From an uncultured virus (IMG/VR IMGVR_UViG_3300031994_000073) (lineage: Duplodnaviria; Heunggongvirae; Uroviricota; Caudoviricetes): DNA of 64,000 bases. Positions 2,850 to 24,416 of this stretch are shown one piece after another. The position numbers were made by a program, and so were the translations under genes. Location of the stretch: IMG/VR virus record IMGVR_UViG_3300031994_000073. One strand, written 5' to 3'. The notes below the pieces were generated by a model. That model worked only from the letters and a program-made list of their open reading frames with translations. It had not been told where the DNA came from and did not search any database. Positions within the stretch are counted from its first letter, which is position 1, and the number at the start of each line of letters is the position of its first letter.

Positions 2850-3218
2850 TTAATGACTTGAGAAAGTTTGCTTGCGTTCATTGTTTTTCTTCACTAAGGA
2901 AAGTTCTCTGTGCAGCTGTGCTTGCCACTTATTCCAGCAATCTTCAAGAAGCCGACGCTTTTTGAGTACCACATCTCTGCGTCCAGCAAATGCATCTGGA
3001 AGGCCGTTCAATTCTGTCACGCAGTTCCATTGCGGAATGTAGCGCGGCTTTAACTGATAGTGGACAAACCATTCATCTGTTTCTTTTAGTCGCTCAAGGA
3101 ACGTAAAGTGTCTGCCGTTGATCTCGACAAAGTAGTCCTCAATGCCACTAACGGTCTGTCTTTTAAGCACTTCCTTATGGGACTGGATGAATGACTTGAT
3201 TTCTTCAGTTTTTAACAT
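2850..3218 (-). CDS. hypothetical protein
   Basis: Start trimmed to ATG 3218 (MLKTEE), abutting the stop of 3220..3663. Confidence 0.6.
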   Translation of the reverse strand: MLKTEEIKSFIQSHKEVLKRQTVSGIEDYFVEINGRHFTFLERLKETDEWFVHYQLKPRYIPQWNCVTELNGLPDAFAGRRDVVLKKRRLLEDCWNKWQAQLHRELSLVKKNNERKQTFSSH

Positions 3219-3219
3219 T

Positions 3220-3663
3220 TTACATTTCCTTAAGGATTTCAGCGCAAGCCTTGAGCTCTTTCTGAGCGTTTTCCTTGACAAGCGTTTCGTTATATTCTGC
3301 GATCTTCTTCAAAGCATCTGCGACGGAAACGTAGCCTTCATCGTCAGTCCAGCCTTTGTACTCGAAGATCATGCTTTCAGCAAGCTGGTCAATCATCGGC
3401 CATTCCGGAGTCTCTGCTTCATAGCCTGCAAGCGAACAGTCGGCCATCTTCGTGCCGAAGTCAATGTAGGGGCGCCAGTCAGCCTTCGGAAAGTGAGAGC
3501 ACTTCACGCAAGTAAAGCCGCTCATTCCCCAGCCAGCCGGACGGCCAAGAGAGTCGTGCTTGCGGACTTTTCCTTCATAACGTTTCAGCGTCATTGTCAC
3601 CTTTTCGGCGCCAAGATCAAATTCAACAACTCGGGTCTTGCTTTTAACTTCTTTGTAAGCCAT
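3220..3663 (-). CDS. hypothetical protein
   Basis: 147 aa ORF in operon. Confidence 0.75.
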   Translation of the reverse strand: MAYKEVKSKTRVVEFDLGAEKVTMTLKRYEGKVRKHDSLGRPAGWGMSGFTCVKCSHFPKADWRPYIDFGTKMADCSLAGYEAETPEWPMIDQLAESMIFEYKGWTDDEGYVSVADALKKIAEYNETLVKENAQKELKACAEILKEM

Positions 3664-3665
3664 GT

Positions 3666-3884
3666 TTAAGCCTCTTTATGCAGAGTGAAGATAAGGTTGT
3701 TGCTGTAGGAAATGAATACGATGTCGCCGACTTTGTATAGGCTTGTATTAGAACGAGTGATCTCAAACACAACCCCGTTCTCGTTGATGTCCTTGACGAT
3801 GCCAAACTTGGAGTATGTATCGCCCGGATAAATTTGAACTTCTTTGTTCAGATAAGTGTCAATCATATAGTTAGACTTAGCCAT
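3666..3884 (-). CDS. small hypothetical protein, possibly Sm/SH3-like beta-barrel
   Basis: 72 aa; YLNKEVQIY...GIVKDINENGVVFEI pattern resembles Sm-like folds (inference). Confidence 0.55.
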   Translation of the reverse strand: MAKSNYMIDTYLNKEVQIYPGDTYSKFGIVKDINENGVVFEITRSNTSLYKVGDIVFISYSNNLIFTLHKEA

Positions 3885-3922
3885 GATTCAAACTCTTGTT
3901 AAACTGTTACCATCAATTTCCA

Positions 3923-3959
3923 ACGTAGATAATATAACAACTTTCTTGGAGTCCGTCAA
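3923..3959 (-). promoter_or_regulatory. sigma70-like early promoter
   Basis: TTGACG-17-TATATT; flanks nearly identical to those of 1197-1233. Confidence 0.85.
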
Positions 3960-4082
3960 CTAAAAAATCATAAAAATATGAAAAATTATGTAAAACAAAG
4001 TTTACATACGAAAAACGCCCAAATTTCATCAATTTGGGCATATTGTCATTTTATGACAAAAATAGGTAAAATTTGATCTGAG

Positions 4083-4105
4083 CGGAGAGTGCAGGACTCG
4101 AACCT
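4083..4105 (-). pseudogene. 3' remnant of a tRNA (Ser-like T arm and acceptor strand)
   Basis: AGGTTCGAGTCCTGC-ACTCTCC-G abutting the stop codon of endonuclease 4106..4735; no matching 5' half found. Confidence 0.75.
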
Positions 4106-4735
4106 TTATTCTCCGATGAAATTACTAGCTATAGAAATCCATCTTTTTGGCTCTGCATACATTTCTTTCCATTTTATTCTTAAAACTTGCCAACCATTTT
4201 CAATAAGTTTTGAATCTTTCCTGAGATCTGATTCAGCTTGTTGTTCATTTCGTTGATGTTGAGCACCGTCAATTTCTATGCAACGTTTCTTTTTAACCCA
4301 AGCAAAATCTAATCTATATTGAAAGAACTGATAATTGTATTCATAATCTTTATCATTAAACTCATTTTCTATTACTTTTGTGAAGAATTCTTCCGGATAG
4401 CTTTTCTTGCTCGAATGGCAGTTCATCCATCCATGCCATCTGCCTGATCTATATCCTTCTAAAGCGCGTTCACGTAAAATTTGTTTTTGTTCAGCAGAAA
4501 CTGAGTGACCATTATAAGGTGCAGGATTAGGATTTTTCTTACATCTGCGTTCATGTAAACGCATACCGCACAATGTAGTAATTACCGTATGTCCACAAAA
4601 TTTACATGTTAATGAACGTTTTGGCTGTTGTCCACATTTAATTTTATGAACTTCATGTAAATGTTTATATTTTAGTCCTTTAGAATCAAAAACATCAGTA
4701 CAATAAGGACACGGCCATTTAAAATGTATTTTCAT
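4106..4735 (-). CDS. DUF559/Vsr-like putative homing endonuclease with N-terminal Zn fingers
   Basis: CPYC..HLHEVH and CKFC..HERRC; RLDFAW..IEIDGAQH..DLRKDSKLIENGWQVLRI; AAGGAG RBS; TATAAATA upstream. Confidence 0.85.
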   Translation of the reverse strand: MKIHFKWPCPYCTDVFDSKGLKYKHLHEVHKIKCGQQPKRSLTCKFCGHTVITTLCGMRLHERRCKKNPNPAPYNGHSVSAEQKQILRERALEGYRSGRWHGWMNCHSSKKSYPEEFFTKVIENEFNDKDYEYNYQFFQYRLDFAWVKKKRCIEIDGAQHQRNEQQAESDLRKDSKLIENGWQVLRIKWKEMYAEPKRWISIASNFIGE

Positions 4736-4779
4736 CTTTTCTCCTTTTTAGCTTTTTATGGTTATTCCCGTAACCATTT

Positions 4780-4787
4780 TATTTATA
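4780..4787 (-). promoter_or_regulatory. T4-type late promoter TATAAATA
   Basis: Exact match to the T4 gp55 consensus, upstream of the endonuclease. Confidence 0.7.
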
Positions 4788-4842
4788 CAGTTAGATGCTT
4801 TGGAGAAAGCATCAGCTGGCGGGAACCAGTTGTCCTGTATTA

Positions 4843-4927
4843 CTGCGGGTGCAGGATTCGAACCCGCGGCCCATTACTGAGCGGTTCGTTAGCACCGAAC
4901 TGGTTTAGACCACTCACCCAACCCGCA
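4843..4927 (-). tRNA. tRNA-Ser(GCT), divergent
   Basis: TGCGGGT/ACCCGCA acceptor, G73, loop GT-GCT-AA, long variable arm. Confidence 0.85.
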
Positions 4928-4933
4928 AAAAGC

Positions 4934-5035
4934 AAGATACCATTTTGTTTCACCTCCGGCATGTGCTGCCGGCGCTCTATACTTAAGCTATTGTTCCCAA
5001 GGCGGAATAAGAAATATTCTTGCTGTTAGTATCTT
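4934..5035 (-). ncRNA. AAGAT-CAGCA family element 1
   Basis: AAGATAC-TAACAGCAA...GTATCTT terminal stem; internal D-arm-like TAGCTTAAGTATAGAGC. Confidence 0.55.
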
Positions 5036-5040
5036 TAAAG

Positions 5041-5124
5041 TAGCCAAGGAAGGACTTGAACCTTCACGCCCTTGCGGGCAGGGGTGTTTGAGACCCCGGC
5101 GTCTACCAATTCCGCCACTTGGCC
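5041..5124 (-). tRNA. tRNA-Leu(CAA)
   Basis: Cloverleaf, loop CT-CAA-AC, variable arm. Confidence 0.92.
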
Positions 5125-5348
5125 AAAAATAAAAATAATTCATTACAAGTTAGCACAGATTGTTTCATGCTATGTTCCTCTGTGTCCCGGGTGACTTTCC
5201 GGCCCTTCTTACATAGGATTGCGTATCGTTATATCACCTCACTCAAGTATCGCCGCTTTAAATGCGCATTAGCAAGCTAACGACTCAAATAAGAACTTCA
5301 ATTCCTGGCAGGCCAATATGTCCAGTGAAGTAACGAATTATTTTGTAG

Positions 5349-5420
5349 CAGGGACACCTGGACTCGAACCAAGATCCACGGTTTTGGAGACCGCCATTCT
5401 GGCCATTGAACTATATCCCT
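5349..5420 (-). tRNA. tRNA-Trp(CCA)
   Basis: Cloverleaf, loop CT-CCA-AA. Confidence 0.92.
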
Positions 5421-5431
5421 AGATAAATTAG

Positions 5432-5502
5432 TTGCCCGTGATGGACTTGAACCACCAATTCATGAGTCAGAGTCATGCGTGTTACCATTACACCAACGGG
5501 CA
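5432..5502 (-). tRNA. tRNA-Gln(CTG)
   Basis: Cloverleaf, loop CT-CTG-AC. Confidence 0.92.
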
Positions 5503-5508
5503 ATAAAC

Positions 5509-5734
5509 AAGATACTGTCGCGGTTGAGTCGCCGCTGTGCTCTCACCATATCTCTCCTGGTAGGCAACAGCTTGCTGCAAGTTCATTCAGTTTCTACTGA
5601 CATATTCCGTCACTTGTACGAACAGGCCGTGGGAGCAGGCAACGATATTACTACCGCCGGCAATTACCCTACCCTAATTCCACATTTTGATTGTGTCATC
5701 GTTAGTAAGCGTTTTATTTTGCTGTAAGTATCTT
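5509..5734 (-). ncRNA. AAGAT-CAGCA family element 2
   Basis: AAGATAC-TTACAGCAA...GTATCTT terminal stem. Confidence 0.55.
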
Positions 5735-5737
5735 ATA

Positions 5738-5814
5738 GTCCCATAGCCGAGATTTGAACCCGGACCTCATGCGCCACAAGCATGCGTGCTTTACCAATTA
5801 ACACCACTGCGGGG
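5738..5814 (-). tRNA. tRNA-His(GTG)
   Basis: Loop TT-GTG-GC, T arm TTCAAAT; imperfect acceptor stem, ends approximate. Confidence 0.8.
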
Positions 5815-5822
5815 ATGTATAG

Positions 5823-5892
5823 TTGCGAAGGTGGGTACCGCCCCCACGGAGGCCGGCTTATGAGACCGGCTGGAATACTTATTCTCCTCGCA
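5823..5892 (-). tRNA. atypical tRNA-Met(CAT)
   Basis: TGCGAGG/CTTCGCA acceptor, loop CT-CAT-AA, minimal D loop, T loop GGCGGTA. Confidence 0.75.
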
Positions 5893-5902
5893 ATAAAAAT
5901 TC

Positions 5903-6008
5903 AAGATGCTCCATTGGACTGACGGCCGGTCTCGAACCAGCATCTCGGGAAATCCCGTGCTCTAGCCTATTGAGCTACTCCAGCGTTCAGATCTGCTGTT
6001 TGCATCTT
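5903..6008 (-). ncRNA. AAGAT-CAGCA family element 3 with tRNA-like core
   Basis: AAGATGC-AAACAGCA...GCATCTT; internal D arm GCTC/GAGC, short stem CGGGA/TCCCG without a 7-nt loop, T arm GCTGG-TTCGAGA-CCGGC. Confidence 0.6.
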
Positions 6009-6011
6009 TAG

Positions 6012-6083
6012 AGCCCTATCCCGGACTCGAACCGGGGACACCTGCTTGGAAGGCAGAAATGTTAACCACTACACCAATAGGGC
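6012..6083 (-). tRNA. tRNA-Gly(TCC)
   Basis: Cloverleaf, loop CT-TCC-AA, U73. Confidence 0.92.
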
Positions 6084-6092
6084 AAATGTTAG

Positions 6093-6165
6093 AGCCCCAT
6101 GTCGGACTCGAACCGACAACTTTCTCCATGGCAAGGAGATATGCTACCAATTGCATCAATGGGAC
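6093..6165 (-). tRNA. tRNA-Gly(GCC)
   Basis: Cloverleaf, loop TT-GCC-AT, U73. Confidence 0.92.
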
Positions 6166-6169
6166 TTAG

Positions 6170-6260
6170 AGGAGATGGAGGGATTCGAACCCCCGTGCGG
6201 AATGGTTACCGCCCATGGTTTTCAAGACCAGTCCGATAAGCCGTGCTCTGGCACATCTCC
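6170..6260 (-). tRNA. tRNA-Ser(TGA)
   Basis: Cloverleaf, loop CT-TGA-AA, long variable arm. Confidence 0.9.
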
Positions 6261-6273
6261 AAAAAAATTCTAG

Positions 6274-6357
6274 AGCTGAGAGAGGGACTCGAACCCACGA
6301 AGTGTTTCCACCACAGTTTTGCAGACTGTGTCCTTTGCCGCTCGGATTCACCTCAGC
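6274..6357 (-). tRNA. tRNA-Cys(GCA) with long variable arm
   Basis: Loop CT-GCA-AA, U73, variable hairpin GTG-GAAA-CAC. Confidence 0.85.
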
Positions 6358-6489
6358 ATAGTTTATTTATTCTGGCTGTGAGATCCCTAAACTTCAACTT
6401 ATTCTCACCGTTCTCCTGAGAAGGAGTTTTTGGTTTACGCTGGACTTCCACCAGATTTAGCCGGAGTTAATCGGCTCACCAGAATTTCG

Positions 6490-6562
6490 TGCTCTCGGCA
6501 GGACTCGAACCTGCATTATCGGATTCGTAGTCCGATGGTCTATCCAGTTAGCCTACGAGAGC
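6490..6562 (-). tRNA. tRNA-Arg(ACG)
   Basis: Cloverleaf, loop CT-ACG-AA. Confidence 0.92.
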
Positions 6563-6568
6563 AAATAG

Positions 6569-6651
6569 TCGCTCAGGAGGGACTCGAACCCCTCACGCCT
6601 TTCGGCACGGGCTTCTTAGACCCGCGTGTCTACCAATTCCACCACCGAGCG
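6569..6651 (-). tRNA. tRNA-Leu(AAG)
   Basis: Leu-type body, loop CT-AAG-AA, A73. Confidence 0.88.
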
Positions 6652-6662
6652 AAATGTTTTAG

Positions 6663-6746
6663 TGACCTAAGAGGGACTCGAACCCCCACGCCCTTGCGGG
6701 CATCTGATCCTAAGTCAGGCGGGTCTACCAATTCCCCCACTAGGCC
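6663..6746 (-). tRNA. tRNA-Leu(TAG)
   Basis: Loop CT-TAG-GA, variable arm. Confidence 0.9.
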
Positions 6747-6753
6747 AAATTAG

Positions 6754-6826
6754 TGCCTCCCTCCCGTAACGATCGGGAATCCTCGGATTTTCAGTCCGTT
6801 GCATAGACCATCTTTGCTAGAGAGGC
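6754..6826 (-). tRNA. tRNA-Phe(GAA)
   Basis: Loop CT-GAA-AA; T loop ATCGTTA. Confidence 0.88.
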
Positions 6827-6832
6827 AAAAGC

Positions 6833-6892
6833 AAGATACATTTGGATTCAAGATTAAAAATTGAATTGGGTTAAAGTTGCTGCATGTATCTT
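6833..6892 (-). ncRNA. AAGAT-CAGCA family element 4 (minimal)
   Basis: AAGATAC-ATGCAGCAA...GTATCTT. Confidence 0.55.
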
Positions 6893-6895
6893 TAG

Positions 6896-6969
6896 TCCGC
6901 AGGGTAGGATTTGAACCTACAACCTCCAGTATATCAGACTGACAAACGAACCAATCGTTATGCCTGCGG
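6896..6969 (-). tRNA. tRNA-Ile(GAT), divergent copy
   Basis: CCGCAGG/CCTGCGG acceptor, loop CT-GAT-AT. Confidence 0.8.
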
Positions 6970-6978
6970 AAAATTTAG

Positions 6979-7052
6979 TCCGCAACCCTGGACTCGAACC
7001 AGGAACCTCCACCTTATCAGAGTGGCTATCTAACCAATTGCTATAGCTGCGG
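6979..7052 (-). tRNA. tRNA-Ile(GAT)
   Basis: CCGCAGC/GTTGCGG acceptor, loop CT-GAT-AA. Confidence 0.88.
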
Positions 7053-7256
7053 AAAAAGAGCGAAGACCCCTTAAGTCCAGTTAAAAACAGTTATATCGCT
7101 GTCACTGTTACCATCTTTTCAACGGCGGCCAACCAAGGGAAGATGTTACCAACCTCGTTTCTTTTCATCAAGAAGCGTAGAATGGAGAAGTCGTATTTAA
7201 CGTGGTCCTCTCGCGACGGCACGCTCCCAGTAAGCCAAGGACTCTCACTGGATTAG

Positions 7257-7331
7257 TTCCCGAGGAGGGATTCGAACCCCCGACCTTCTGTGTGTAAAAC
7301 AGCGGCTCTAAACCAACTGAGCTACCCGGGA
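7257..7331 (-). tRNA. tRNA-Val(TAC)
   Basis: Cloverleaf, loop TT-TAC-AC. Confidence 0.92.
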
Positions 7332-7394
7332 ATAAGCACTGCTGATATACTCAAGTTCGTTTGTTTCAGTTCTCTGTTGCATATCAGTATTTCG

Positions 7395-7467
7395 TGGACG
7401 GGAAGGGACTCGAACCCTTAACCTTCTGCTTGCAAAGCAGTTGCGCTACCAGTTGCGCCACGAGCCC
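7395..7467 (-). tRNA. tRNA-Ala(TGC)
   Basis: G3:U70, loop TT-TGC-AA. Confidence 0.9.
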
Positions 7468-7617
7468 ATAAAAGGTGAAGAACGGGCGTAGATAAGTCAT
7501 GAACTCATCCAAACTTCACTGATGTATGAAATCTAACTTATACAAGCATTGGACGTTAGAATCTCCATCTTCTCTGTGCAGAAAATGCTAAACACTCACA
7601 GAGTTCCGTTTTTGAAG

Positions 7618-7688
7618 CGGTCTCAACGGGTCACGATCCCGTACCTCCGGCGTGACAAGCCGGTATCCATCCATTAAACGATGAGACC
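7618..7688 (-). tRNA. tRNA-Asp(GTC)
   Basis: Loop TT-GTC-AC, G73; T loop ATCGTGA. Confidence 0.88.
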
Positions 7689-7698
7689 AAAATGTTAG

Positions 7699-7772
7699 TA
7701 GCGCTGTCGGGACTCGAACCCGAATTTCCGACTTGAAAGGCCGACGAACTGAACCAGTTATTCGACAGCGCC
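7699..7772 (-). tRNA. tRNA-Glu(TTC)
   Basis: Loop CT-TTC-AA. Confidence 0.9.
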
Positions 7773-7776
7773 ATAG

Positions 7777-7848
7777 TAGCGGGGGTCGGGATCGAACCGA
7801 CGACTTCCAGGTTATGGGCCTGGCGAGCTACCACTGCTCTACCCCGCA
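7777..7848 (-). tRNA. tRNA-fMet(CAT)
   Basis: Initiator-type body with 1:72 mismatch, loop CC-CAT-AA. Confidence 0.88.
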
Positions 7849-7862
7849 ATAAAAAGCGTTAG

Positions 7863-7935
7863 CTGGGAAGGAGGGACTCGAACCCCCAACATAGTGGTTA
7901 ACAGCCACCCGTTCTGCCATTAGAACTACAACCCA
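7863..7935 (-). tRNA. tRNA-Asn(GTT)
   Basis: Loop CT-GTT-AA, G73. Confidence 0.9.
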
Positions 7936-7944
7936 ATGTAATAG

Positions 7945-8017
7945 TGGACAATAAGGGACTCGAACCCTTGACCTCCTGAGTGCAAATCAGGCGTTCTTCC
8001 AACTGAACTAAAAGCCC
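7945..8017 (-). tRNA. tRNA-Ala(TGC), second copy
   Basis: G3:U70, loop TT-TGC-AC. Confidence 0.9.
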
Positions 8018-8155
8018 ATAAGTTTCGCCCCTTACTCAACTACCTGCAGTTAGCTTTTCGTGGACTTGTCAATTCCCGGGTGGACTTGAACCACCGTGTC
8101 CGTCCGTTTTAGCGTCCGGTCCAACTACCGTCATTGGACAGTCATTGACCATTAG

Positions 8156-8242
8156 TGGGTGGCGAGGGATTCGGACCCCCAAAGCCCGTTAGGGCGGCGG
8201 AGTTACAGTCCGCCCTGACTCACCAGCCGTCAGCGGCCACCC
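8156..8242 (-). tRNA. tRNA-Tyr(GTA)
   Basis: Loop CT-GTA-AC, variable arm; T loop TCCGAAT. Confidence 0.88.
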
Positions 8243-8425
8243 ATAAGAAACTGTTCTCAGTGCAGCGACCCCGCAACCTGCACCATTCGCTGTTCTTCAC
8301 CAAATCGTATTGAAACAATCCACTGAAGTGCTCGCCTGTGCCGTAACCATACTTGCAACCAATTCCTGCTCTGCGCATCAAGCCAAAATCAATCGTTTTC
8401 AGATTACTGCTATTTTTGAACAGTA

Positions 8426-8500
8426 TCGGGCTAGTCGGATTCGAACCGACGACCTCTTGATCCCAAATCAAGCGCTCTAGCCAGACTGAGCTACAGCCCG
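8426..8500 (-). tRNA. tRNA-Pro(TGG)
   Basis: CGGGCTG acceptor, loop TT-TGG-GA. Confidence 0.92.
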
Positions 8501-8655
8501 TTATTCGCCCTGTACTTAAACCCTCTAGAAAAGTCTGTTCTAGGACTTGCCTATCGTTGTCCCTATCTCAACCAGACTCGAACTGATTTTTCTGCCACGA
8601 TTGACAGCGTCTTATCCTGAAGACCTTTTTGATAGTTTCTATTGTAAGCCGTTAG

Positions 8656-8693
8656 TGCCCCAGGAAGGACTCGAACCTTCAACCCACGGATTA
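8656..8693 (-). pseudogene. 3' half of an interrupted tRNA
   Basis: TAA-TCCGT-GGGTT-GAAGG-TTCGAGT-CCTTC-CTGGGGC-A; pairs with the 5' half at 9435-9467. Confidence 0.88.
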
Positions 8694-8702
8694 TGGCTTT
8701 TA

Positions 8703-8775
8703 TGGGAGTACCGAGACTCGAACTCGGATTCGACGATTAAGAGTCGCCTATACTAGCCAATTGTATTATACTCCC
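8703..8775 (-). tRNA. tRNA-Lys(CTT) nested inside the interrupted tRNA
   Basis: GGGAGTA/TACTCCC acceptor, loop CT-CTT-AA; 5' end overlaps the last codons and stop of the endonuclease. Confidence 0.88.
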
Positions 8776-9419
8776 ATTAGGAATTTACGGACAATTTCAA
8801 TCCATTCTTTTGGATTTTTATAGCATTCTTGCCAAGGAATCCTAAGTTCTTTCCAGCCGTTTTCTGTTAGAAGCTTATCTTTTGCAGCATCTCTCAGTTT
8901 TTGAGTATTGTCTGTTTGATGTTGCTTCCCATCAACTTCTATGCACAGTTTCTTGGTCGGCCAAGCAAAATCTAAAGAAAATCTACCAAAGGAAAATTCA
9001 GTTTTGTAATCTTCATTTTCTCTAAGATCAAATTCATCAGCTAGAACTTTTATCAACCATTTTTCTGGCCAACTATGTTCATTATTCCAACGGCATTGCC
9101 CTATGTTATAGGCTCTGCCTTCAGAATGTGCTAACTTCATTGATTCAAAAATTTTAGATTTCGTCTTCGCAGAATGTTTTTTGTCCTTCCATGAAGGAAT
9201 TATTTCGCCATTTCTGTAGCGTTCACTTAGTCTTTCTCCTTTAATTCTCAGAATATCATTTGTTTCTTTGTTTTTTCCTTTATTCCAGGGTTCTTTGCCT
9301 TTCATGTGATTGACATAAACTCTATCTGGATTTTCAGGACAAAGTCGCTCATGATTTCGGTGAGCATTTGGATTTTTACAAGTTCTGCCACAGAATTTAC
9401 AAATACAAGACGTTTCCAT
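8766..9419 (-). CDS. DUF559/Vsr-like putative homing endonuclease (Zn finger, NUMOD3-like)
   Basis: CKFC..HERLC; PWNKG; KKHSAKTKSK; FSLDFAW..IEVDGKQH..DKLLTENGWKELRI; start trimmed to ATG 9419 after TATAAATA (9424-9431). Confidence 0.85.
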   Translation of the reverse strand: METSCICKFCGRTCKNPNAHRNHERLCPENPDRVYVNHMKGKEPWNKGKNKETNDILRIKGERLSERYRNGEIIPSWKDKKHSAKTKSKIFESMKLAHSEGRAYNIGQCRWNNEHSWPEKWLIKVLADEFDLRENEDYKTEFSFGRFSLDFAWPTKKLCIEVDGKQHQTDNTQKLRDAAKDKLLTENGWKELRIPWQECYKNPKEWIEIVRKFLMGV

Positions 9420-9434
9420 ATTGTATTTATATTC

Positions 9435-9467
9435 AGTCCGCTGCGCTACCAATTGCGCCACTGGGGC
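9435..9467 (-). pseudogene. 5' half of the interrupted tRNA
   Basis: GCCCCAG-TG-GCGC-AATTGGTA-GCGC-A-GCGGA-CT, ending in the anticodon loop. Confidence 0.88.
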
Positions 9468-9575
9468 ATGGAATTGATCTTGTAATCAATATGTTCTATT
9501 TATTACAAGAACTTTTCAAAAACTGCCATTTTTTCAATTTTCTGCCAATCTTCGCGAGAGAGGCATTTTATTTTG

Positions 9576-9724
9576 ACGTATCAAATATAAAAAATTATTT
9601 TGATTTTGTCAAGGGTAAAAATTGAAATTTTTTCATTTTTTTCAAAAATTTTCAATTTTTCTTGTTGAGATCGAGCAATCAATTTCAACGTAGTAAATAT
9701 AACAATTAGTTTCCAATCCGTCAA
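9576..9724 (-). promoter_or_regulatory. two tandem sigma70-like promoters (9576-9612, 9688-9724) upstream of the tRNA array
   Basis: TTGAC(A/G)-17-TATATT in both. Confidence 0.8.
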
Positions 9725-9818
9725 CCAATTTTTTCAAATTTTTTCAATTTTTTCTGTAAACTTTTGTAAACAGAAACAGTTGATACAGTTGATAGATTGT
9801 TGATAACTGTCAATTTAG

Positions 9819-10192
9819 TGGGGACCGGAGGAGTTGAACCTCCACAGGAACTTCACCTGCGTTATTAGTTCCATGCACCTATCTATTGAGAGCTTACCTC
9901 AACTCGTGTGATGCACCGCCTCTCCTTATCCATCCTTCCATCAAGAAGTAACTTCAGCCCGATTATGGGAGCTACCCAGTCTTCTACTTGCAACTTCGAG
10001 ACTTCTGTCGTTTCAGCGAGTTCCGATCCTATCTGCTCTAGCTAAGAGCTAGCCATTCACGGTTCTACTTACTCCTTTATATGGGACTTTCATTAGGAAG
10101 GACCAAGATCGCAGCTACAAAGAGCAACCAATGCAACTACTTTCGGCTTGTCGTATCATCTTTGTCTTACTCGCCATTGGCGGAGGGTCCCC
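9819..10192 (-). ncRNA. 374-nt RNA with tRNA-like acceptor stem and T arm
   Basis: 5' GGGGACC pairs with 3' GGTCCCC-A; T arm GGAGG-TTCAACT-CCTCC; followed by CTA like the tRNAs. Confidence 0.7.
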
Positions 10193-10203
10193 GAATATCT
10201 TAG

Positions 10204-10275
10204 CGCCTTCACCCGGACTCGAACCAGGAATAGCTGATTACAAATCAGCTCGTTTACCGATTAACGTATAAAGGC
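10204..10275 (-). tRNA. tRNA-Thr(TGT)
   Basis: Loop TT-TGT-AA. Confidence 0.9.
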
Positions 10276-10354
10276 AAATAAAAGCGCTGGAGCTGAAAGT
10301 TAGCAGCATTACTCGAGTTGTCTGCAGTTCAATCCGCTCCTATCGCAATTTTAG

Positions 10355-10427
10355 CTGGGAAGACAGGACTCGAACCTGTGACATGGTGGTTAACAGCCAC
10401 CCGTTCTACCGACTGAACTACAACCCA
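10355..10427 (-). tRNA. tRNA-Asn(GTT), second copy
   Basis: Loop CT-GTT-AA. Confidence 0.9.
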
Positions 10428-10657
10428 AAAAGGGAGCGCGACCCTAACGGCTACGGCCCGAAATGAAACTTGTACTTTGTTTCAAATGATGTTCGCCTAA
10501 CATCTCTTCGCTCAATACCGGTGAGACCGCCAATCGTGCACCTTAAAGGCGATCTCCCTCAACACCCATAAAGCGTCTCGTCAGGTGAGACCTCCCTCAA
10601 TTAGCGGCTCGGCTGATTACGTTAGTATCGCTATCGCTAAATGGCTGTTGAGATTAG

Positions 10658-10730
10658 CGCCCGCAGAGGGATCCGAACCCCCGACCTGATGATTACTAAA
10701 CATCTGCTCTACCAGCTGAGCTATACGGGC
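10658..10730 (-). tRNA. tRNA-Thr(AGT)
   Basis: GCCCGTA acceptor, loop TT-AGT-AA. Confidence 0.85.
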
Positions 10731-11064
10731 AAAAGGGAGCAGAAACACTGTGAGCATCGGTGATGCTCTTGGCCAATCTGAAGCGTGAACGCGTAATCGG
10801 CTCCAGAATAAAGGCACGAGGACTGTTTGCTACCTGTCAGGATTGACTTACCTTTGCTATTGCCTTACTCGGTTAGGAGCGGTTAGCATTGGGCAATCAC
10901 TGATACAACTTTCAGGGAACGTGAGGAGTACGGACCGGACTCGCACCGCGTCAGCCGCGCCGTTAAAGAAGCGGGGCTCCAAAACTAAGCAACTCAACCT
11001 ACCTTTAACCCCGGTAGGCATTAGTCGCACGCTCTAAACAGTAGTATCTCGTTGTTTCCGCTAG

Positions 11065-11138
11065 TAGTCCCATTTGGCGTCGAACCAAATTTTCCAGGTT
11101 GAAAACCTAGCGTCCTATCCATCGTAGACGATGGGACC
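11065..11138 (-). tRNA. tRNA-Glu(TTC), second copy
   Basis: Loop TT-TTC-AA. Confidence 0.88.
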
Positions 11139-11203
11139 ATAGATAAACGGATTTCCAAATTTTCAATTTTCCACTTCGCTTCACGAGCGAGGCGTTTTGA
11201 TTG

Positions 11204-11240
11204 ACAGATCAAATATAAAAATTATTTTTGATTCTGTCAA
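11204..11240 (-). promoter_or_regulatory. sigma70-like promoter
   Basis: TTGACA-17-TATATT. Confidence 0.75.
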
Positions 11241-11448
11241 CCGATTTTTCAAAATTTTTCAAAATTTCAACTGAAAAATTTTGAGGGTTGCGGCGCAGAT
11301 TCGCAAGCGATTCTGCATAGACCCGCTCGTTAGGGTTTTGTCGTGAGCCAGATCAACCGCGCTTCCCTTGTCAGCGCCAGAGGGCTTTTTCAACGAGCAA
11401 GGCTTTAGCCTAGGATTTTCTGTAATCAAACCGTTGTTGATTTTGATT

Positions 11449-11485
11449 ACGTAGTAAATATAACAACTTTATTGCTACTTGGCAA
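11449..11485 (-). promoter_or_regulatory. sigma70-like promoter
   Basis: TTGCCA-17-TATATT-TACTACGT. Confidence 0.8.
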
Positions 11486-11716
11486 TTGGAAATTTGAAAA
11501 TTTTTTCCGAAATATTACACTTTCTTCAAAATAGTCAAAAATCCGTGTTATATTGGCAATTTATCAACTGTTAGCGAACCACAGGAATCTCGCAGGTTTA
11601 TCAGGTTTTTGTGTAATAAACCGACGTTTTCCATGTAATTTTAAGCAACAGTTTTTAGGACGTATCCTCTAAATTGCCGCCTGACAAAATGTTTTATCAA
11701 CACTTTATCAACATAG

Positions 11717-11803
11717 TAGGCATACGAGGAGTCGGACCTCTCTGCACCGCCCTGGATTGTTTATGCAGCCCGGGTTATGAGTCCGGCCCAAGGTAGTACG
11801 CCT
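11717..11803 (-). tRNA. D-arm-less tRNA-like gene, anticodon CAT (Ile2 or Met)
   Basis: AGGCGTA/TATGCCT acceptor, loop CT-CAT-AA, T arm GAGG-TCCGACT-CCTC, no D stem, long variable region. Confidence 0.75.
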
Positions 11804-11869
11804 ATTTCGTTTAACTTGTTACCGCAGTAGCGTTCTGCTTTGAGAGAATTTCACTCTCGCCAATTTTAG

Positions 11870-11940
11870 TTGCCCGCGGTGGTACCGCCCCACCTCCAAG
11901 AGATTCAAAGTCTCCTATACTACTTCTATACGAGCGGGCA
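11870..11940 (-). tRNA. tRNA-Gln(TTG), atypical T loop
   Basis: TGCCCGC/GCGGGCA acceptor, loop CT-TTG-AA, T loop GGCGGTA. Confidence 0.82.
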
Positions 11941-12121
11941 AAAAGTGCCGGGCTACCGGCTAATGCGAAAGACGCCGAGGAACGCAAGTTTACCGCGAAT
12001 AGACTCTTGTTCCTCTAGTCTGCGCTGGGTTGATTCCCACCTGTCCTTCCGGGCTCGAACCGGACACTCCCCCGTCAAGGAGGCGTTTTGCCAACCGATA
12101 AACTAAGGCACGCAGATTTAG

Positions 12122-12194
12122 TAGTGCATTCGGGATTCGGACCCGAGTCTCCAGCTTGAGAGGCTAGCGAACTAACCAACTATTCTAATGCACC
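12122..12194 (-). tRNA. tRNA-Glu(CTC)
   Basis: Loop CT-CTC-AA. Confidence 0.88.
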
Positions 12195-12202
12195 AAATGT
12201 AG

Positions 12203-12282
12203 TACGCTGGGCGGGGATCGAACCCGCATTTTCAACTCCAGTTACGGATAACGGATTAGAAGTCCGAACCGGTTACCAGCGT
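12203..12282 (-). tRNA. D-arm-less tRNA-like gene, anticodon TCT (Arg)
   Basis: ACGCTGG/CCAGCGT acceptor, loop CT-TCT-AA, T arm GCGGG-TTCGATC-CCCGC, no D stem, long variable region. Confidence 0.78.
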
Positions 12283-12295
12283 GTAATGTCAATAG

Positions 12296-12985
12296 TTAAA
12301 GATTGTTGATCTTTGAAACTAAGTCTAAAACGAATTTCTCTTGCTTTTCTTTAGAAAGCTTCTTATATTTACTCCATCTAATTCTATCTAGGCATTTCCA
12401 TCCATCAGACTTTAATCTTTCAGTTCTAAGAATGTCATGTTCTAATATTCTTTTATCTAAATAATGTTGTTCTCCATCAATTTCTAAATAAGTCTTTTTA
12501 TCAGGCCAAGCAAAATCAAGATAATATCCGAGTATTTTGTAATTCTGTTCGTAAGTGATCCTATTATTCTCGAACACCGTTTTGAAGTATTGCTCTGGAT
12601 AGCTATCTCCTTTAGAATGGTGATTCAATACATAAGGTACTTTTTCTGGATGTTCAGCTAAATAATGTTTTCTACTTTCAGAGATTCTTTTCTTAGTCTC
12701 TTCTGAATGCTTCTTACCTAAATAAGCTGGCATCAATTCTTCCGTTTCATACCTTTTCTTTAATTTTTCTGCCGCTGCTTTTAATCTTACATCGTCTTCA
12801 CCGGTTCGTCCAGCATTCCAAGCTTTACATCCAGGAGCATATTTTCTTTTTCCATCTAAGATTACGTATTGAATATGAACTTTCGGACCTTTTTCACAGA
12901 CTCTTTTATGTTCTATAAGATCTATTTTTCTAGGAAATAAATCTTTACAGTACGGACATTTCCAATTTTCATTGCACCTCTTCAT
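12296..12985 (-). CDS. DUF559/Vsr-like putative homing endonuclease (Zn finger, NUMOD3)
   Basis: CPYC..HKRVC; YLGKKHSEETKKRISES; YLDFAW..LEIDGEQH..DILRTERLKSDGWK; TTTAAATA upstream. Confidence 0.85.
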   Translation of the reverse strand: MKRCNENWKCPYCKDLFPRKIDLIEHKRVCEKGPKVHIQYVILDGKRKYAPGCKAWNAGRTGEDDVRLKAAAEKLKKRYETEELMPAYLGKKHSEETKKRISESRKHYLAEHPEKVPYVLNHHSKGDSYPEQYFKTVFENNRITYEQNYKILGYYLDFAWPDKKTYLEIDGEQHYLDKRILEHDILRTERLKSDGWKCLDRIRWSKYKKLSKEKQEKFVLDLVSKINNL

Positions 12986-13008
12986 GATTTATTTAAACTC
13001 AAAACTTA

Positions 13009-13081
13009 TGGGGACATAGGGACTCGAACCCTAAATCGCGCATTAAAAGTGCGCAGTAATAACCAGTTTTACTATATCCCC
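13009..13081 (-). tRNA. tRNA-Lys(TTT)
   Basis: Loop CT-TTT-AA. Confidence 0.88.
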
Positions 13082-13098
13082 AAGGGATTCTAAAATTA

Positions 13099-13182
13099 TC
13101 GGCCTGAACGGACTCGAACCGATACGGCGTTACCGCCGGGGGATTTTAAGTCCCCTGTGTCTACCAATTTCACCACAAGCCG
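13099..13182 (-). tRNA. tRNA-Leu(TAA)
   Basis: Loop CT-TAA-AA, variable arm. Confidence 0.9.
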
Positions 13183-13187
13183 TGAGA

Positions 13188-13340
13188 TTAGTAGTCGTAT
13201 AATTCTGATTGGGAACGTTTTCGGGTTTTGATCTTTATACCCGCTTGAGAGGCAAAAGACCTGGCCGTCTTCAAATTCTTGGCCCAACGCTGTTCTTTTT
13301 CTTCGCGTGTTTCAATGTGTCTTTCATGATTCTTTTTCAT
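13188..13340 (-). CDS. small basic hypothetical protein (50 aa, MKKNHERH...), absent from the ORF track
   Basis: ATG to TAA open frame with GAGG RBS, downstream of the promoter at 13390-13426. Confidence 0.55.
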   Translation of the reverse strand: MKKNHERHIETREEKEQRWAKNLKTARSFASQAGIKIKTRKRSQSELYDY

Positions 13341-13389
13341 TTTTGCCTCTTGTTGTTAGTTGCTTTTAAAAAGTATTGTTGTTTTTGTT

Positions 13390-13426
13390 ACAGATAAAAT
13401 ATAATAACTTTTATTCAATCTGTCAA
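13390..13426 (-). promoter_or_regulatory. sigma70-like promoter
   Basis: TTGACA-17-TATATT. Confidence 0.75.
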
Positions 13427-13468
13427 CTGTTTTAATGTATTTATAACAAAGAATTTTCTAAATCTTCA

Positions 13469-14140
13469 TTATAGAACGAATCCGCCGGTGATTGCTTTGT
13501 CAACGACAGCAGCGAGCTTCTCAGCGTATTCAAGCTGCTTCTTAGCGTAAGCTCTTTGCTTCTCGACGATTTCGTTGCAGGCAGCCTTGATCTCGTCTTC
13601 GGAGTACCATTCCTTCTTGTCAAGCCAGACGTAGGTCTTGAGATAGTAAAGATCGCCGCCATCGGTGCGGACCGGCGTAAGAGTCTCAAGATCAACGTCA
13701 CGCCAGAGCTGTAACTTGACGTGATAGCCTTTCGGTTCCCACGTGCGGATGAACGGAAATCTCGTCTTCACATCTTCATACTTCACCAGTCCCTTAGCGG
13801 CTGCTTGGATCATTTGGACCTTCGCCTCGTGAGCGATAGCTTTCTTCACTGCAAGCATTAAGTGCAGTAAGTCTTCACAGAGTTCTCTACTGAAGGCACG
13901 AGGATAACCGCCTTGAAGCGACCAGCCCTTTGGCTTGGTAACACAAAGATGCGCAGTGTTGTACGTCTTTTCAGCCAGCTTAGTGATGACTTGGTCAAAC
14001 CAATCAGTATTAGACTCAGCATTGCTGATGGCGTCAGCGTTATCCTTCATGAAGGCATTGAAACTGCCTGCAGTCCAGAACGGAATGCCACGGAAGACCT
14101 TTTGCTGTTCCTTAGTAAGATAGCTGAAAAAAGACGGCAT
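13469..14140 (-). CDS. hypothetical protein
   Basis: 223 aa ORF, GAGGA RBS. Confidence 0.75.
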   Translation of the reverse strand: MPSFFSYLTKEQQKVFRGIPFWTAGSFNAFMKDNADAISNAESNTDWFDQVITKLAEKTYNTAHLCVTKPKGWSLQGGYPRAFSRELCEDLLHLMLAVKKAIAHEAKVQMIQAAAKGLVKYEDVKTRFPFIRTWEPKGYHVKLQLWRDVDLETLTPVRTDGGDLYYLKTYVWLDKKEWYSEDEIKAACNEIVEKQRAYAKKQLEYAEKLAAVVDKAITGGFVL

Positions 14141-23279: not shown

Positions 23280-24416
23280 ATGAAAATATTGACTAGAGGT
23301 GGTTTCAAGGAATTTGAAGGAGTTCTGAGAAAGAAAAGTAATTGTTATCGTATAGAATTGGAATATACGATAGGGGCGAAAAGTGAGAAAAGGGGGAAGA
23401 CGATGGTCTCAGGAAGTGAGGATCATCGAGTGAAGGTCTGGAATATAGACGGGGAATTGGAATGGAAGAGGCTAGACAAGTTGGTAGTTGGAGACAAGTT
23501 GTACGCCGGAAAAAAAGATGGGAAAACGGGGGACTGGGCTGTCACTAAGATTGACTGTATTGGTGAAAAGTTCGTGTTTACCCCAGTCGCAGTTGGTGGC
23601 GGAGAGTACATGAGCGGGTCTTTTGACCATCATAACTGTTCATTCCTTGGATCTGCAGAGACTTTGATTGATGGTAAGTGGCTAGATAAGATGACGAGCG
23701 TGGAGCCGATAGACTGGAAGTATGGATACTGTATGACAGTGTATGAGGAGCCGAAGAGGGGCGCTTTGTACGTCATGGGAGTGGATAGCGCTATGGGTAA
23801 CGCAGGCGACTATTCTGCAGTGCAAGTGCTGAAAGTTGAAGGAAAGAAACGATATCGTCAAGTGGCAGCGTACCACTGCAATACGATTAAAGCGGAAGAC
23901 TTTGCGTACGTCGTTGATGACATCAGCAAGATGTATAACGATGCACAGTACATTATTGAGAATAACGGAATTGGCAGAAGCGTGGCAGAAGCGCTGATCT
24001 ATGACATTGGAAATGGTAGCATGATTTCTACTGACAAGCACGGAGAACTTGGAACGAAAGCAAGCAAAGACACTAAGCTTGACGCATGCCGAATACTGAA
24101 GAACATGGTCGAGAAAGGTCATTTGACTATCGTTGATTCAGACACGATTGACGAACTTTCAAGATTTGAAGCAGTGACTCCGGAAGTATTTAGAGGAGCA
24201 TCGGGAAAGCACGATGACTTGGTGTCTGCTTTGTACTGGGCTTGCTACTGCTTGACTCAGCCGGAAGTGGACTTGGAAGGAATGACGCCAGGTGGTGGAA
24301 CTAAGGGACTTGCAATGAGCGCCGGCGAAGACACTGAGCTTCCGCCTCCTATCTACATGGATGTGATGGGCGTGTCGGCGCAGCTTGGGTCTGACTTCTG
24401 GAAAGGACTCAACTAG
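23280..24416 (+). CDS. terL: terminase large subunit, C-terminal nuclease half, fused to a split-intein C fragment
   Basis: Hint-like N-terminus ending HHN, then CSFLGS; gp17-like YVMGVDSAMG, IIENNGIG, HDDLVSAL; no ATPase domain. Confidence 0.88.
   Translation: MKILTRGGFKEFEGVLRKKSNCYRIELEYTIGAKSEKRGKTMVSGSEDHRVKVWNIDGELEWKRLDKLVVGDKLYAGKKDGKTGDWAVTKIDCIGEKFVFTPVAVGGGEYMSGSFDHHNCSFLGSAETLIDGKWLDKMTSVEPIDWKYGYCMTVYEEPKRGALYVMGVDSAMGNAGDYSAVQVLKVEGKKRYRQVAAYHCNTIKAEDFAYVVDDISKMYNDAQYIIENNGIGRSVAEALIYDIGNGSMISTDKHGELGTKASKDTKLDACRILKNMVEKGHLTIVDSDTIDELSRFEAVTPEVFRGASGKHDDLVSALYWACYCLTQPEVDLEGMTPGGGTKGLAMSAGEDTELPPPIYMDVMGVSAQLGSDFWKGLN

Follow-up and report, generated by a model that had tools for sequence, protein, structure and literature searches.

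How does a phage tRNA array come to hold a nuclease gene that ends flush against the last bases of a broken tRNA gene, with a complete tRNA-Ser(GCT) on its other side? We addressed this question in a 64,000-nt stretch of DNA from an uncultured virus (IMG/VR record IMGVR_UViG_3300031994_000073; the whole stretch is called the window here), which is part of a large T4-like phage. The major head (phrog_138) and portal (phrog_213) proteins are encoded in the window, and the public sequencing runs that contain the stretch are sheep and bovine gut metagenomes. Thirty-three tRNA genes were called by ARAGORN on the minus strand between 4842 and 13182, which places the nuclease ORF in a phage tRNA gene cluster. 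The unit under study is the final one of this array and lies immediately before a terminator-like hairpin (4011..4041, minus strand) that is host sequence and is also found in the empty allele described below. The array holds three related ORFs, all DUF559 by Pfam, the other two being 42% and 37% identical to the first. Phages in GenBank gave DNA matches at the tRNA level only and protein matches that were distant only, and a record that is 100% identical to the window over this stretch (G001) was not counted as independent.

Read along the minus strand, the locus consists of an intact tRNA-Ser(GCT) (4927-4843), a 107-nt leader, an ORF (4735-4106), and the 23-nt 3' end of a tRNA (4105-4083). 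The initial annotation had the stop codon of the ORF directly abutting the tRNA 3' end, and all of its coordinates hold, with the stop codon TAA at 4108-4106. The ORF (4106..4735, minus) encodes 209 amino acids, matches DUF559 in Pfam above the cut-off (E 5.5e-10), and has a GC content of 33% versus 43% for the window. The remnant (4083..4105, minus) is made up of the last 3 nt of the 5' T-stem strand, the T loop, the 3' T-stem strand, the acceptor strand ACTCTCC, and G73; two T-stem bases are missing. The tRNA-Ser(GCT) upstream (4843..4927, minus; 85 nt), which we call the cargo tRNA, was recognized by ARAGORN, by Rfam (47.3 bits), and by its cloverleaf fold, and has U1-A72, G32 at position 4895, its anticodon at 4893-4891, and a discriminator G. 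The claim that its 5' strand cannot pair with the remnant was overstated: five of the seven pairs are possible (one of them G-U), versus all seven with its own partner.

What the site looks like without the ORF can be read from close relatives. We compared four runs with the window over positions 3000-13600, and three of the four (X4, X5, and X8, from three studies) have a joint from 4105 to 4929 that skips 823 nt and carries 61 other letters. Run X5 holds both empty and filled alleles, its filled allele being a second version with 59 differences over 4081-4943. When metagenome contigs were scanned for the remnant, four loci were returned (L080, L081, L082, and L083). Two of these, L080 and L082, carry one intact GGAGAG-type tRNA-Ser(GCT) gene whose last 23 nt equal the remnant, within the same flanks as in the window (upstream flank identity to the window of 1364 of 1433 aligned columns for L080 and 1115 of 1224 for L082); L081 repeats the filled allele, and the tRNA gene at L083 is unrelated. 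L076, a relative further removed (capsid 85-86%), likewise carries just one Ser(GCT) gene at this position and lacks the ORF. The remnant match is not a matter of chance, because 23 of 23 bases agree in both L080 and L082, where position and flanks are also shared. As a pattern, the remnant matched ten times in viral contigs (five Ser(GCT), one Ser(TGA), one Ser(ACT), two Tyr, and one uncalled), and its isotype is therefore fixed by the empty allele and not by the remnant alone.

Compared at the level of sequence, these alleles show that an 823-nt cassette (4106..4928, minus; tRNA, leader, and ORF) replaced the first 61 nt of a resident tRNA-Ser(GCT) gene and left one working Ser(GCT) gene together with a 3' stump, and that filled and empty alleles both circulate. 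The left junction of the cassette is a T run just 5' of the first base of the cargo tRNA, and the right junction lies within the T stem. The fragment had initially been read as a Ser-type tRNA 3' end, and close relatives lacking the ORF had been expected to carry a canonical GGAGAG-type tRNA-Ser(GCT); both proved correct in L080 and L082, and the original observation, of a displaced tRNA and a replacement isoacceptor accompanying a nuclease gene, is confirmed as real in the form of a nuclease-plus-tRNA cassette that overwrote the resident gene. As is characteristic of a free-standing homing endonuclease gene, filled and empty alleles occur at one site in close relatives, and the nuclease gene lies in neither an intron nor an intein. 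An Rfam scan of 3800-13500 returned no intron family, and splicing could not rebuild the host tRNA gene, because its 5' part is absent.

The 209-aa product is a putative homing endonuclease of the EDxHD/Vsr-like type. It has two N-terminal zinc-finger-like Cys/His motifs and a C-terminal DUF559/Vsr-like (EDxHD-type) domain, and Pfam, which found DUF559, detected no GIY-YIG domain in it. The best PDB profile match to an alignment of the three paralogs was I-Bth0305I (3r3p, E 4.3e-5), and the best PDB fold match was the same entry (E 1.2e-3, TM 0.78 over the target), which is a modest score. Residues E154, D156, H160, and D170 are invariant in 11 sequences and would correspond to the published EDxHD composite motif; 86 proteins match the ORF at E up to 1e-20. 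The window ORF has in common with I-Bth0305I and other EDxHD enzymes, as far as the accessible parts of the papers describe them, a C-terminal Vsr-like domain with conserved E, D, H, and D and a separate N-terminal DNA-binding region (PMC3239194, PMC2677866), and with the EDxHD "fractured gene" loci a late-promoter leader (PMC2677866). The N-terminal region is of the NUMOD/HTH kind in those enzymes, whereas the window ORF has zinc-finger-like motifs, and the same parts of these papers describe EDxHD enzymes from group I introns, split-intein loci, and protein genes but none from tRNA genes; the accessible part of PMC10448857 mentions no tRNA targets.

The cargo tRNA can be traced to other phages. 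It is identical to the displaced tRNA-Ser(GCT) at 52 of 84 positions (62%) and to a Ser(GCT) gene at locus L047 at 72 of 85. The latter lies in a 248-kb phage (G010) whose capsid protein is 52% identical to that of the window, and it has no such ORF beside it. Compared with the resident, the cargo tRNA differs at both ends, and it has a self-consistent acceptor stem, unlike the resident's. Upstream of the ORF the initial annotation saw a complete but odd tRNA-Ser(GCT); the gene is indeed complete, with the U1-A72 pair and G32, and it is not odd but an ordinary allele of a distant phage group. Nor is G32 a special feature, being present in the displaced gene and common in phage Ser(GCT) genes. 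We also rejected it as a cassette-specific escape base: among 76 pattern matches, 35 were called as tRNA, 34 of them Ser(GCT), and a DUF559-like ORF lies directly downstream in three (two distinct).

The 5' pattern of the cargo allele type matched only two viral loci, L047 and L001. Locus L001 carries the closest homologue of the nuclease in viral contigs, and the sole one found by a single-protein search (70% over residues 77-207); its catalytic domain is nearly identical to that of the window. At L001, the allele type that the window carries as cargo is the victim: its 5' and 3' halves flank an intact Ser(GCT) gene followed by the same leader and an ORF, and the bases lost from the split gene are the anticodon loop and its neighbours. 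The tRNA type that is cargo at L001 stands without an ORF in L183 (in G008). Because these types occur without an ORF in L047 and L183, the cargo tRNAs are alleles that other phages carry as ordinary residents. The suggestion that the replacement travels with the nuclease is supported; the replacement is not specific to the nuclease, its near-counterpart being a resident without the ORF in L047 and displaced in L001. Judged from these alignments, one tRNA allele type is cargo in the window and victim in L001, the incoming tRNA most likely crossed between phage groups together with the nuclease, and such nuclease genes appear to bring about swaps of tRNA genes between distant phages.

The leader between the cargo tRNA and the ORF also has a wide distribution. 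Its 5' domain (4785..4840, minus) is predicted by RNAfold and an alignment of 11 copies to form a three-way junction that is closed by pairing of 4840-4835 with 4790-4785, with loop 2 at 4825-4820 and loop 3 at about 4808-4802; the leader fold has a z-score of -2.9 (RNAfold), and none of 200 shuffles was equally stable. In a 3' hairpin (4758..4777, minus), the loop of 6 nt (4770-4765) is exactly complementary to loop 2, and the ribosome-binding site (4738..4744, minus) is complementary over 7 nt to loop 3. A T4-type late promoter motif, TATAAATA (4780..4787, minus), sits between the two leader domains; seven minus-strand copies occur in the window, two of which (4787 and 9431) lie directly before DUF559 ORFs. 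A sigma-70 scan added nothing inside the leader.

A pattern for the 5' part of the leader matched 29 viral loci, which together with the window make 30 sequences, and 18 of the 30 also carry the downstream junction motif, which was not in the pattern. An exact complement of the 6-nt loop 2 is present 40-70 nt downstream in all 18 sequences with the junction motif versus none of the 12 others, and the loops pair with their own partners in 12 of 12 distinct hexamers versus 3 of 132 cross pairs. For loop 3, removal of one duplicate left 17 copies, three of which had no ORF by the rule applied; in 12 of the resulting 14, the loop pairs over at least 5 bp with the ribosome-binding/start region, versus 69 of 182 cross pairs and 22% of shuffles. 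The ORFs behind such leaders (n = 12) comprise three DUF559, two GIY-YIG, and two HNH/NUMOD3 genes, four with only DNA-binding or other domains, and one with nothing. By this comparison, the leader is part of the nuclease gene and not of the tRNA. No covariance model of Rfam 15 matched 4736-4842 at E up to 1. A ribozyme of the HDV-like/theta or hammerhead kind was rejected on comparison by eye with the consensus features, there being no room for P1 and no hammerhead core. One contig from an RNA run spans 4131-5022 with no differences; such contigs give neither strand nor level, and DNA may be present in the run, so that the contig does not count as evidence of expression.

We infer a regulatory role for the leader because T-even nuclease genes use hairpins, simpler ones, with an inner late promoter, as the accessible parts of two papers describe (PMC2988022, PMC2677866). 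In the ribosome-binding-site-sequestering hairpins of I-TevI and Aeh1 mobE, the promoter is placed, as in the window, so that late transcripts are made without the inhibitory 5' part; those are simple hairpins in the available text (PMC2988022), whereas the window leader combines a three-way junction and two long-range loop pairings. In the long tRNA precursor, the leader would keep the nuclease untranslated through the loop-loop pairing and through loop 3 lying over the ribosome-binding site, and the late promoter inside it would yield a short, translatable message. We found no description of such a leader in the literature covered, which included few subscription papers.

The initial annotation proposed that displacement of this kind is a general strategy and that DUF559 ORFs in phage tRNA arrays should be surveyed for it. 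An alignment search gave 44 loci, 22 of them with tRNA genes; after three duplicates were taken out, L004 was merged with L017, and L112 and the three window ORFs were added, there were 22 distinct DUF559 cases in tRNA arrays. A fragment together with an intact gene of the same kind is clear in six of the 22: the Ser and Lys cassettes of the window, L001, L112 (Cys), L014 (Cys-like, 17 nt, by eye), and L018, whose tRNA halves pair and whose Lys isotype is our assignment, the best script matches being Tyr. Five others (L005, L008, L012, L013, and L016) are probable by eye from short 5' pieces, and at the other 11 loci no tRNA fragment was seen. Outside the 22, both halves of a tRNA gene are found at L194 (Val) and, with a different type of nuclease, in a Ser(TGA) case at L047; a homologue at L116/L161 (61% identical) follows a Ser(GCT) gene without a remnant, and no fragment was seen at L191. 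The six of 22 are a description, not an enrichment test, and orphan T arms are also present away from nuclease genes. The layout recurs for Lys, Cys, Val, and Ser(TGA); split-and-replace is recurrent but not universal, and the idea of a general strategy is borne out in part. The tRNA array of the 248-kb phage contains four nuclease genes (L047, L190, L193, and L194), which neighbour Met, Val, Cys, and Ser(TGA) genes; three of these four loci have clear broken tRNA copies. Upstream of the ORF at L023, a tRNA-Lys gene appears, by eye, to contain a group I-like intron at its anticodon.

The second cassette of the window (8766-9466 and 8660-8775, minus) is a split tRNA-Lys(CTT) with a late promoter, a DUF559 ORF, and a different tRNA-Lys(CTT), as seen from its empty alleles. 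The resident Lys(CTT) is broken after U33, and the incoming Lys(CTT) overlaps the stop codon of the ORF. An empty allele (joint from 8693 to 9435) that restores the resident Lys(CTT) occurs in three of the four runs and in L076; since the empty allele is Lys(CTT), the gene split at 8766 is not a Met gene. For the third paralog (12296..12985), the report of no visible remnant was borne out as regards Lys, but 14 nt past its stop codon Rfam finds a tRNA-like element (12203-12282, minus; 35.4 bits) that ARAGORN missed. This element has the anticodon TCT, a fully paired acceptor, a D arm that is nearly absent, and a long variable region; ARAGORN calls no Arg(TCT) gene in the window, and from about 12200 to 13140 the sequence of relatives departs from that of the window.

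Other features of these arrays were noted in passing. A 216-nt non-coding block (5125-5340) before tRNA-Leu(CAA) is present in L080 and missing from L082. A non-coding stretch of ~400 nt at about 9790-10195 (minus) resembles a tRNA acceptor and T arm at its start and its end and has a tmRNA-like outline, and neither ARAGORN nor Rfam finds a tmRNA there. Repeats at 4932-5036, 5505-5730, 5915-6010, and 6830-6895, bounded by a conserved AAGATAC...CAGCAA start and a complementary end, enclose tRNA-like fragments; they match no Rfam family, are frequent in these arrays, and occur also in L001, L047, and L076. Elsewhere in the window, an ORF at 23280-24416 (plus) encodes a terminase C-terminal-like part after an intein-like segment (by eye). 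Different whole alleles of Ser TGA (6169-6260), Thr TGT (10203-10275), and Leu CAA (5040-5124) are found in close relatives within the same flanks and with no adjacent nuclease; because such swaps occur in the same array, tRNA swapping need not involve an adjacent nuclease. It is possible that they are scars of earlier cassettes.

As an explanation of the whole, we favour, as probable, a free-standing homing endonuclease cassette that moves by intronless homing with co-conversion of the donor tRNA allele, in a SegB-like manner. The enzyme would cut tRNA-Ser(GCT) genes, probably in the anticodon arm, a pseudo-palindrome such as dimeric EDxHD enzymes read. According to the available part of its description, I-Bth0305I is a homodimer that cleaves a 14-bp pseudo-palindrome (PMC3239194), and the anticodon arm is the likely target because its DNA is likewise pseudo-palindromic and the readable breaks (L001 Ser, window Lys, L018, and L194) lie in or at anticodon loops. 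The break point in the window is not readable, because the whole 5' part of the resident is gone. At first entry, the break would have been repaired from an unrelated phage via short-homology joins, in the T run on the left and the T arm on the right; thereafter the cassette would spread by ordinary homing, and co-conversion would carry along the less cleavable tRNA allele of the donor. A weak lead as to how the cargo might escape cleavage is an altered anticodon stem: a 15-bp core surrounding the anticodon loop is common to the two displaced Ser genes and is changed by one compensatory pair in both cargo genes, which fits two cases (window and L001) and fails in one, where the L116/L161 cargo keeps the victims' stem core. 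Reciprocity of the D loop as a specificity rule was rejected, as the L116 cargo has the D-loop type of the window's victim.

It is unlikely, in our judgement, that the tRNA and the nuclease merely hitch-hiked on illegitimate recombination between the tRNA arrays of co-infecting phages, with anti-tRNA defences favouring a different Ser allele and the nuclease being a passenger or cutting elsewhere. Such a course would account for the nuclease-free allele swaps in the same array and for cargo alleles that are plain residents in L047 and L183, and SegB-linked tRNA amplification is described, in the accessible part of one paper, as countering a tRNA-cutting defence (PMC13096335). It is harder to reconcile with several independent loci at which broken genes of the same isotype flank the ORF, with breaks in the anticodon loop, or with the three separate close homologues (window, L001, and L116), all of which come after a Ser(GCT) gene. 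Moreover, a nuclease that cuts anticodon loops would hardly distinguish the old from the new gene, because the two are the same over 13 nt that take in the anticodon loop and its neighbours.

Recognition of the T arm, with the right junction in the T stem destroying the site, seems to us improbable. The SegB site includes a T-loop motif in the accessible description (PMC2330249), both cargo genes alter the perfect T stem common to the displaced genes, and the window remnant lacks two T-stem bases; but at L001, where the catalytic domain of the nuclease is nearly the same, the T arm is complete in the 3' half, and the readable breaks are in anticodon loops. Very improbable is a remnant that is itself decayed downstream cargo, left when an intact GGAGAG-type tRNA whose 5' end the ORF had overlapped (as in the Lys cassette) lost its middle: seven of the last 9 nt of the ORF agree with the 5' end of the displaced gene, and this stretch can form pairs with the remnant (z -2.3), but the final codons are explained by similar end residues in the homologues (FIGD, FIGG, and FVGE), the empty allele shows the GGAGAG gene to be the resident, and the L001 homologue carries its tRNA upstream.

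Homing with co-conversion has close precedents, which we know from the accessible parts of the papers cited. In T4/T6, SegB is, like the window ORF, a free-standing nuclease gene in a phage tRNA array (PMC2330249, PMC13096335). It cuts tRNA genes via a T-loop motif and spreads neighbouring tRNA genes (PMC2330249), as the window enzyme may also do, its ribosome-binding site is predicted to be held in RNA structure, as is predicted for the window leader, and SegB genes show no isotype preference in the tRNAs with which they co-occur and can counter a defence by amplifying tRNA-Tyr (PMC13096335). However, SegB is a GIY-YIG enzyme, whereas the window nuclease is DUF559/EDxHD-like; the SegB gene is flanked by intact tRNA genes and its product recognizes the T arm in many isotypes, whereas the window ORF lies amid what is left of a single tRNA gene, next to a replacement with the same anticodon; and the available SegB descriptions contain no split tRNA genes or remnants (PMC2330249, PMC13096335). 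By analogy, the cassette would work like SegB-type intronless homing, but it is not a SegB. With the marker exclusion of SegF, SegG, and mobE it has in common that the donor's target sequence replaces the recipient's by co-conversion. Those enzymes cut hundreds to thousands of bases from their gene and the target gene stays whole (PMC2988022); the window, unlike these, exchanges a whole small gene for a foreign allele and leaves a stump.

Some integrative elements restore the 3' end of a tRNA gene, giving the layout intact tRNA, element, displaced 3' fragment. The window shares this layout, but the ORF is the only one in the cassette, there is no integrase gene, and the intact tRNA is wholly foreign rather than made of a host 5' part and an element 3' part. 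The literature covered, with few subscription papers, yielded no description of split-and-replace tRNA cassettes.

The cassette offers a concrete route for the exchange of tRNA genes between distant phages, and phage tRNA variants are known to counter host defences that cut tRNAs. The matched filled and empty alleles (about 85 bp each) are ready substrates with which the target of an EDxHD enzyme that cuts tRNA genes could be mapped. The leader, which is compact, covaries strongly, and is absent from Rfam, is a candidate RNA switch. More speculatively, EDxHD-type nucleases that read the pseudo-palindromic anticodon arm of one isotype may drive a cycle of whole-gene allele replacement between distant phages, in which the cargo here is the victim there and nuclease-free swaps are the scars. 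Such a cycle might be the main engine of phage tRNA turnover, and the double loop-pairing leader, common to DUF559, GIY-YIG, and HNH genes, might be what lets these genes sit safely in tRNA operons.
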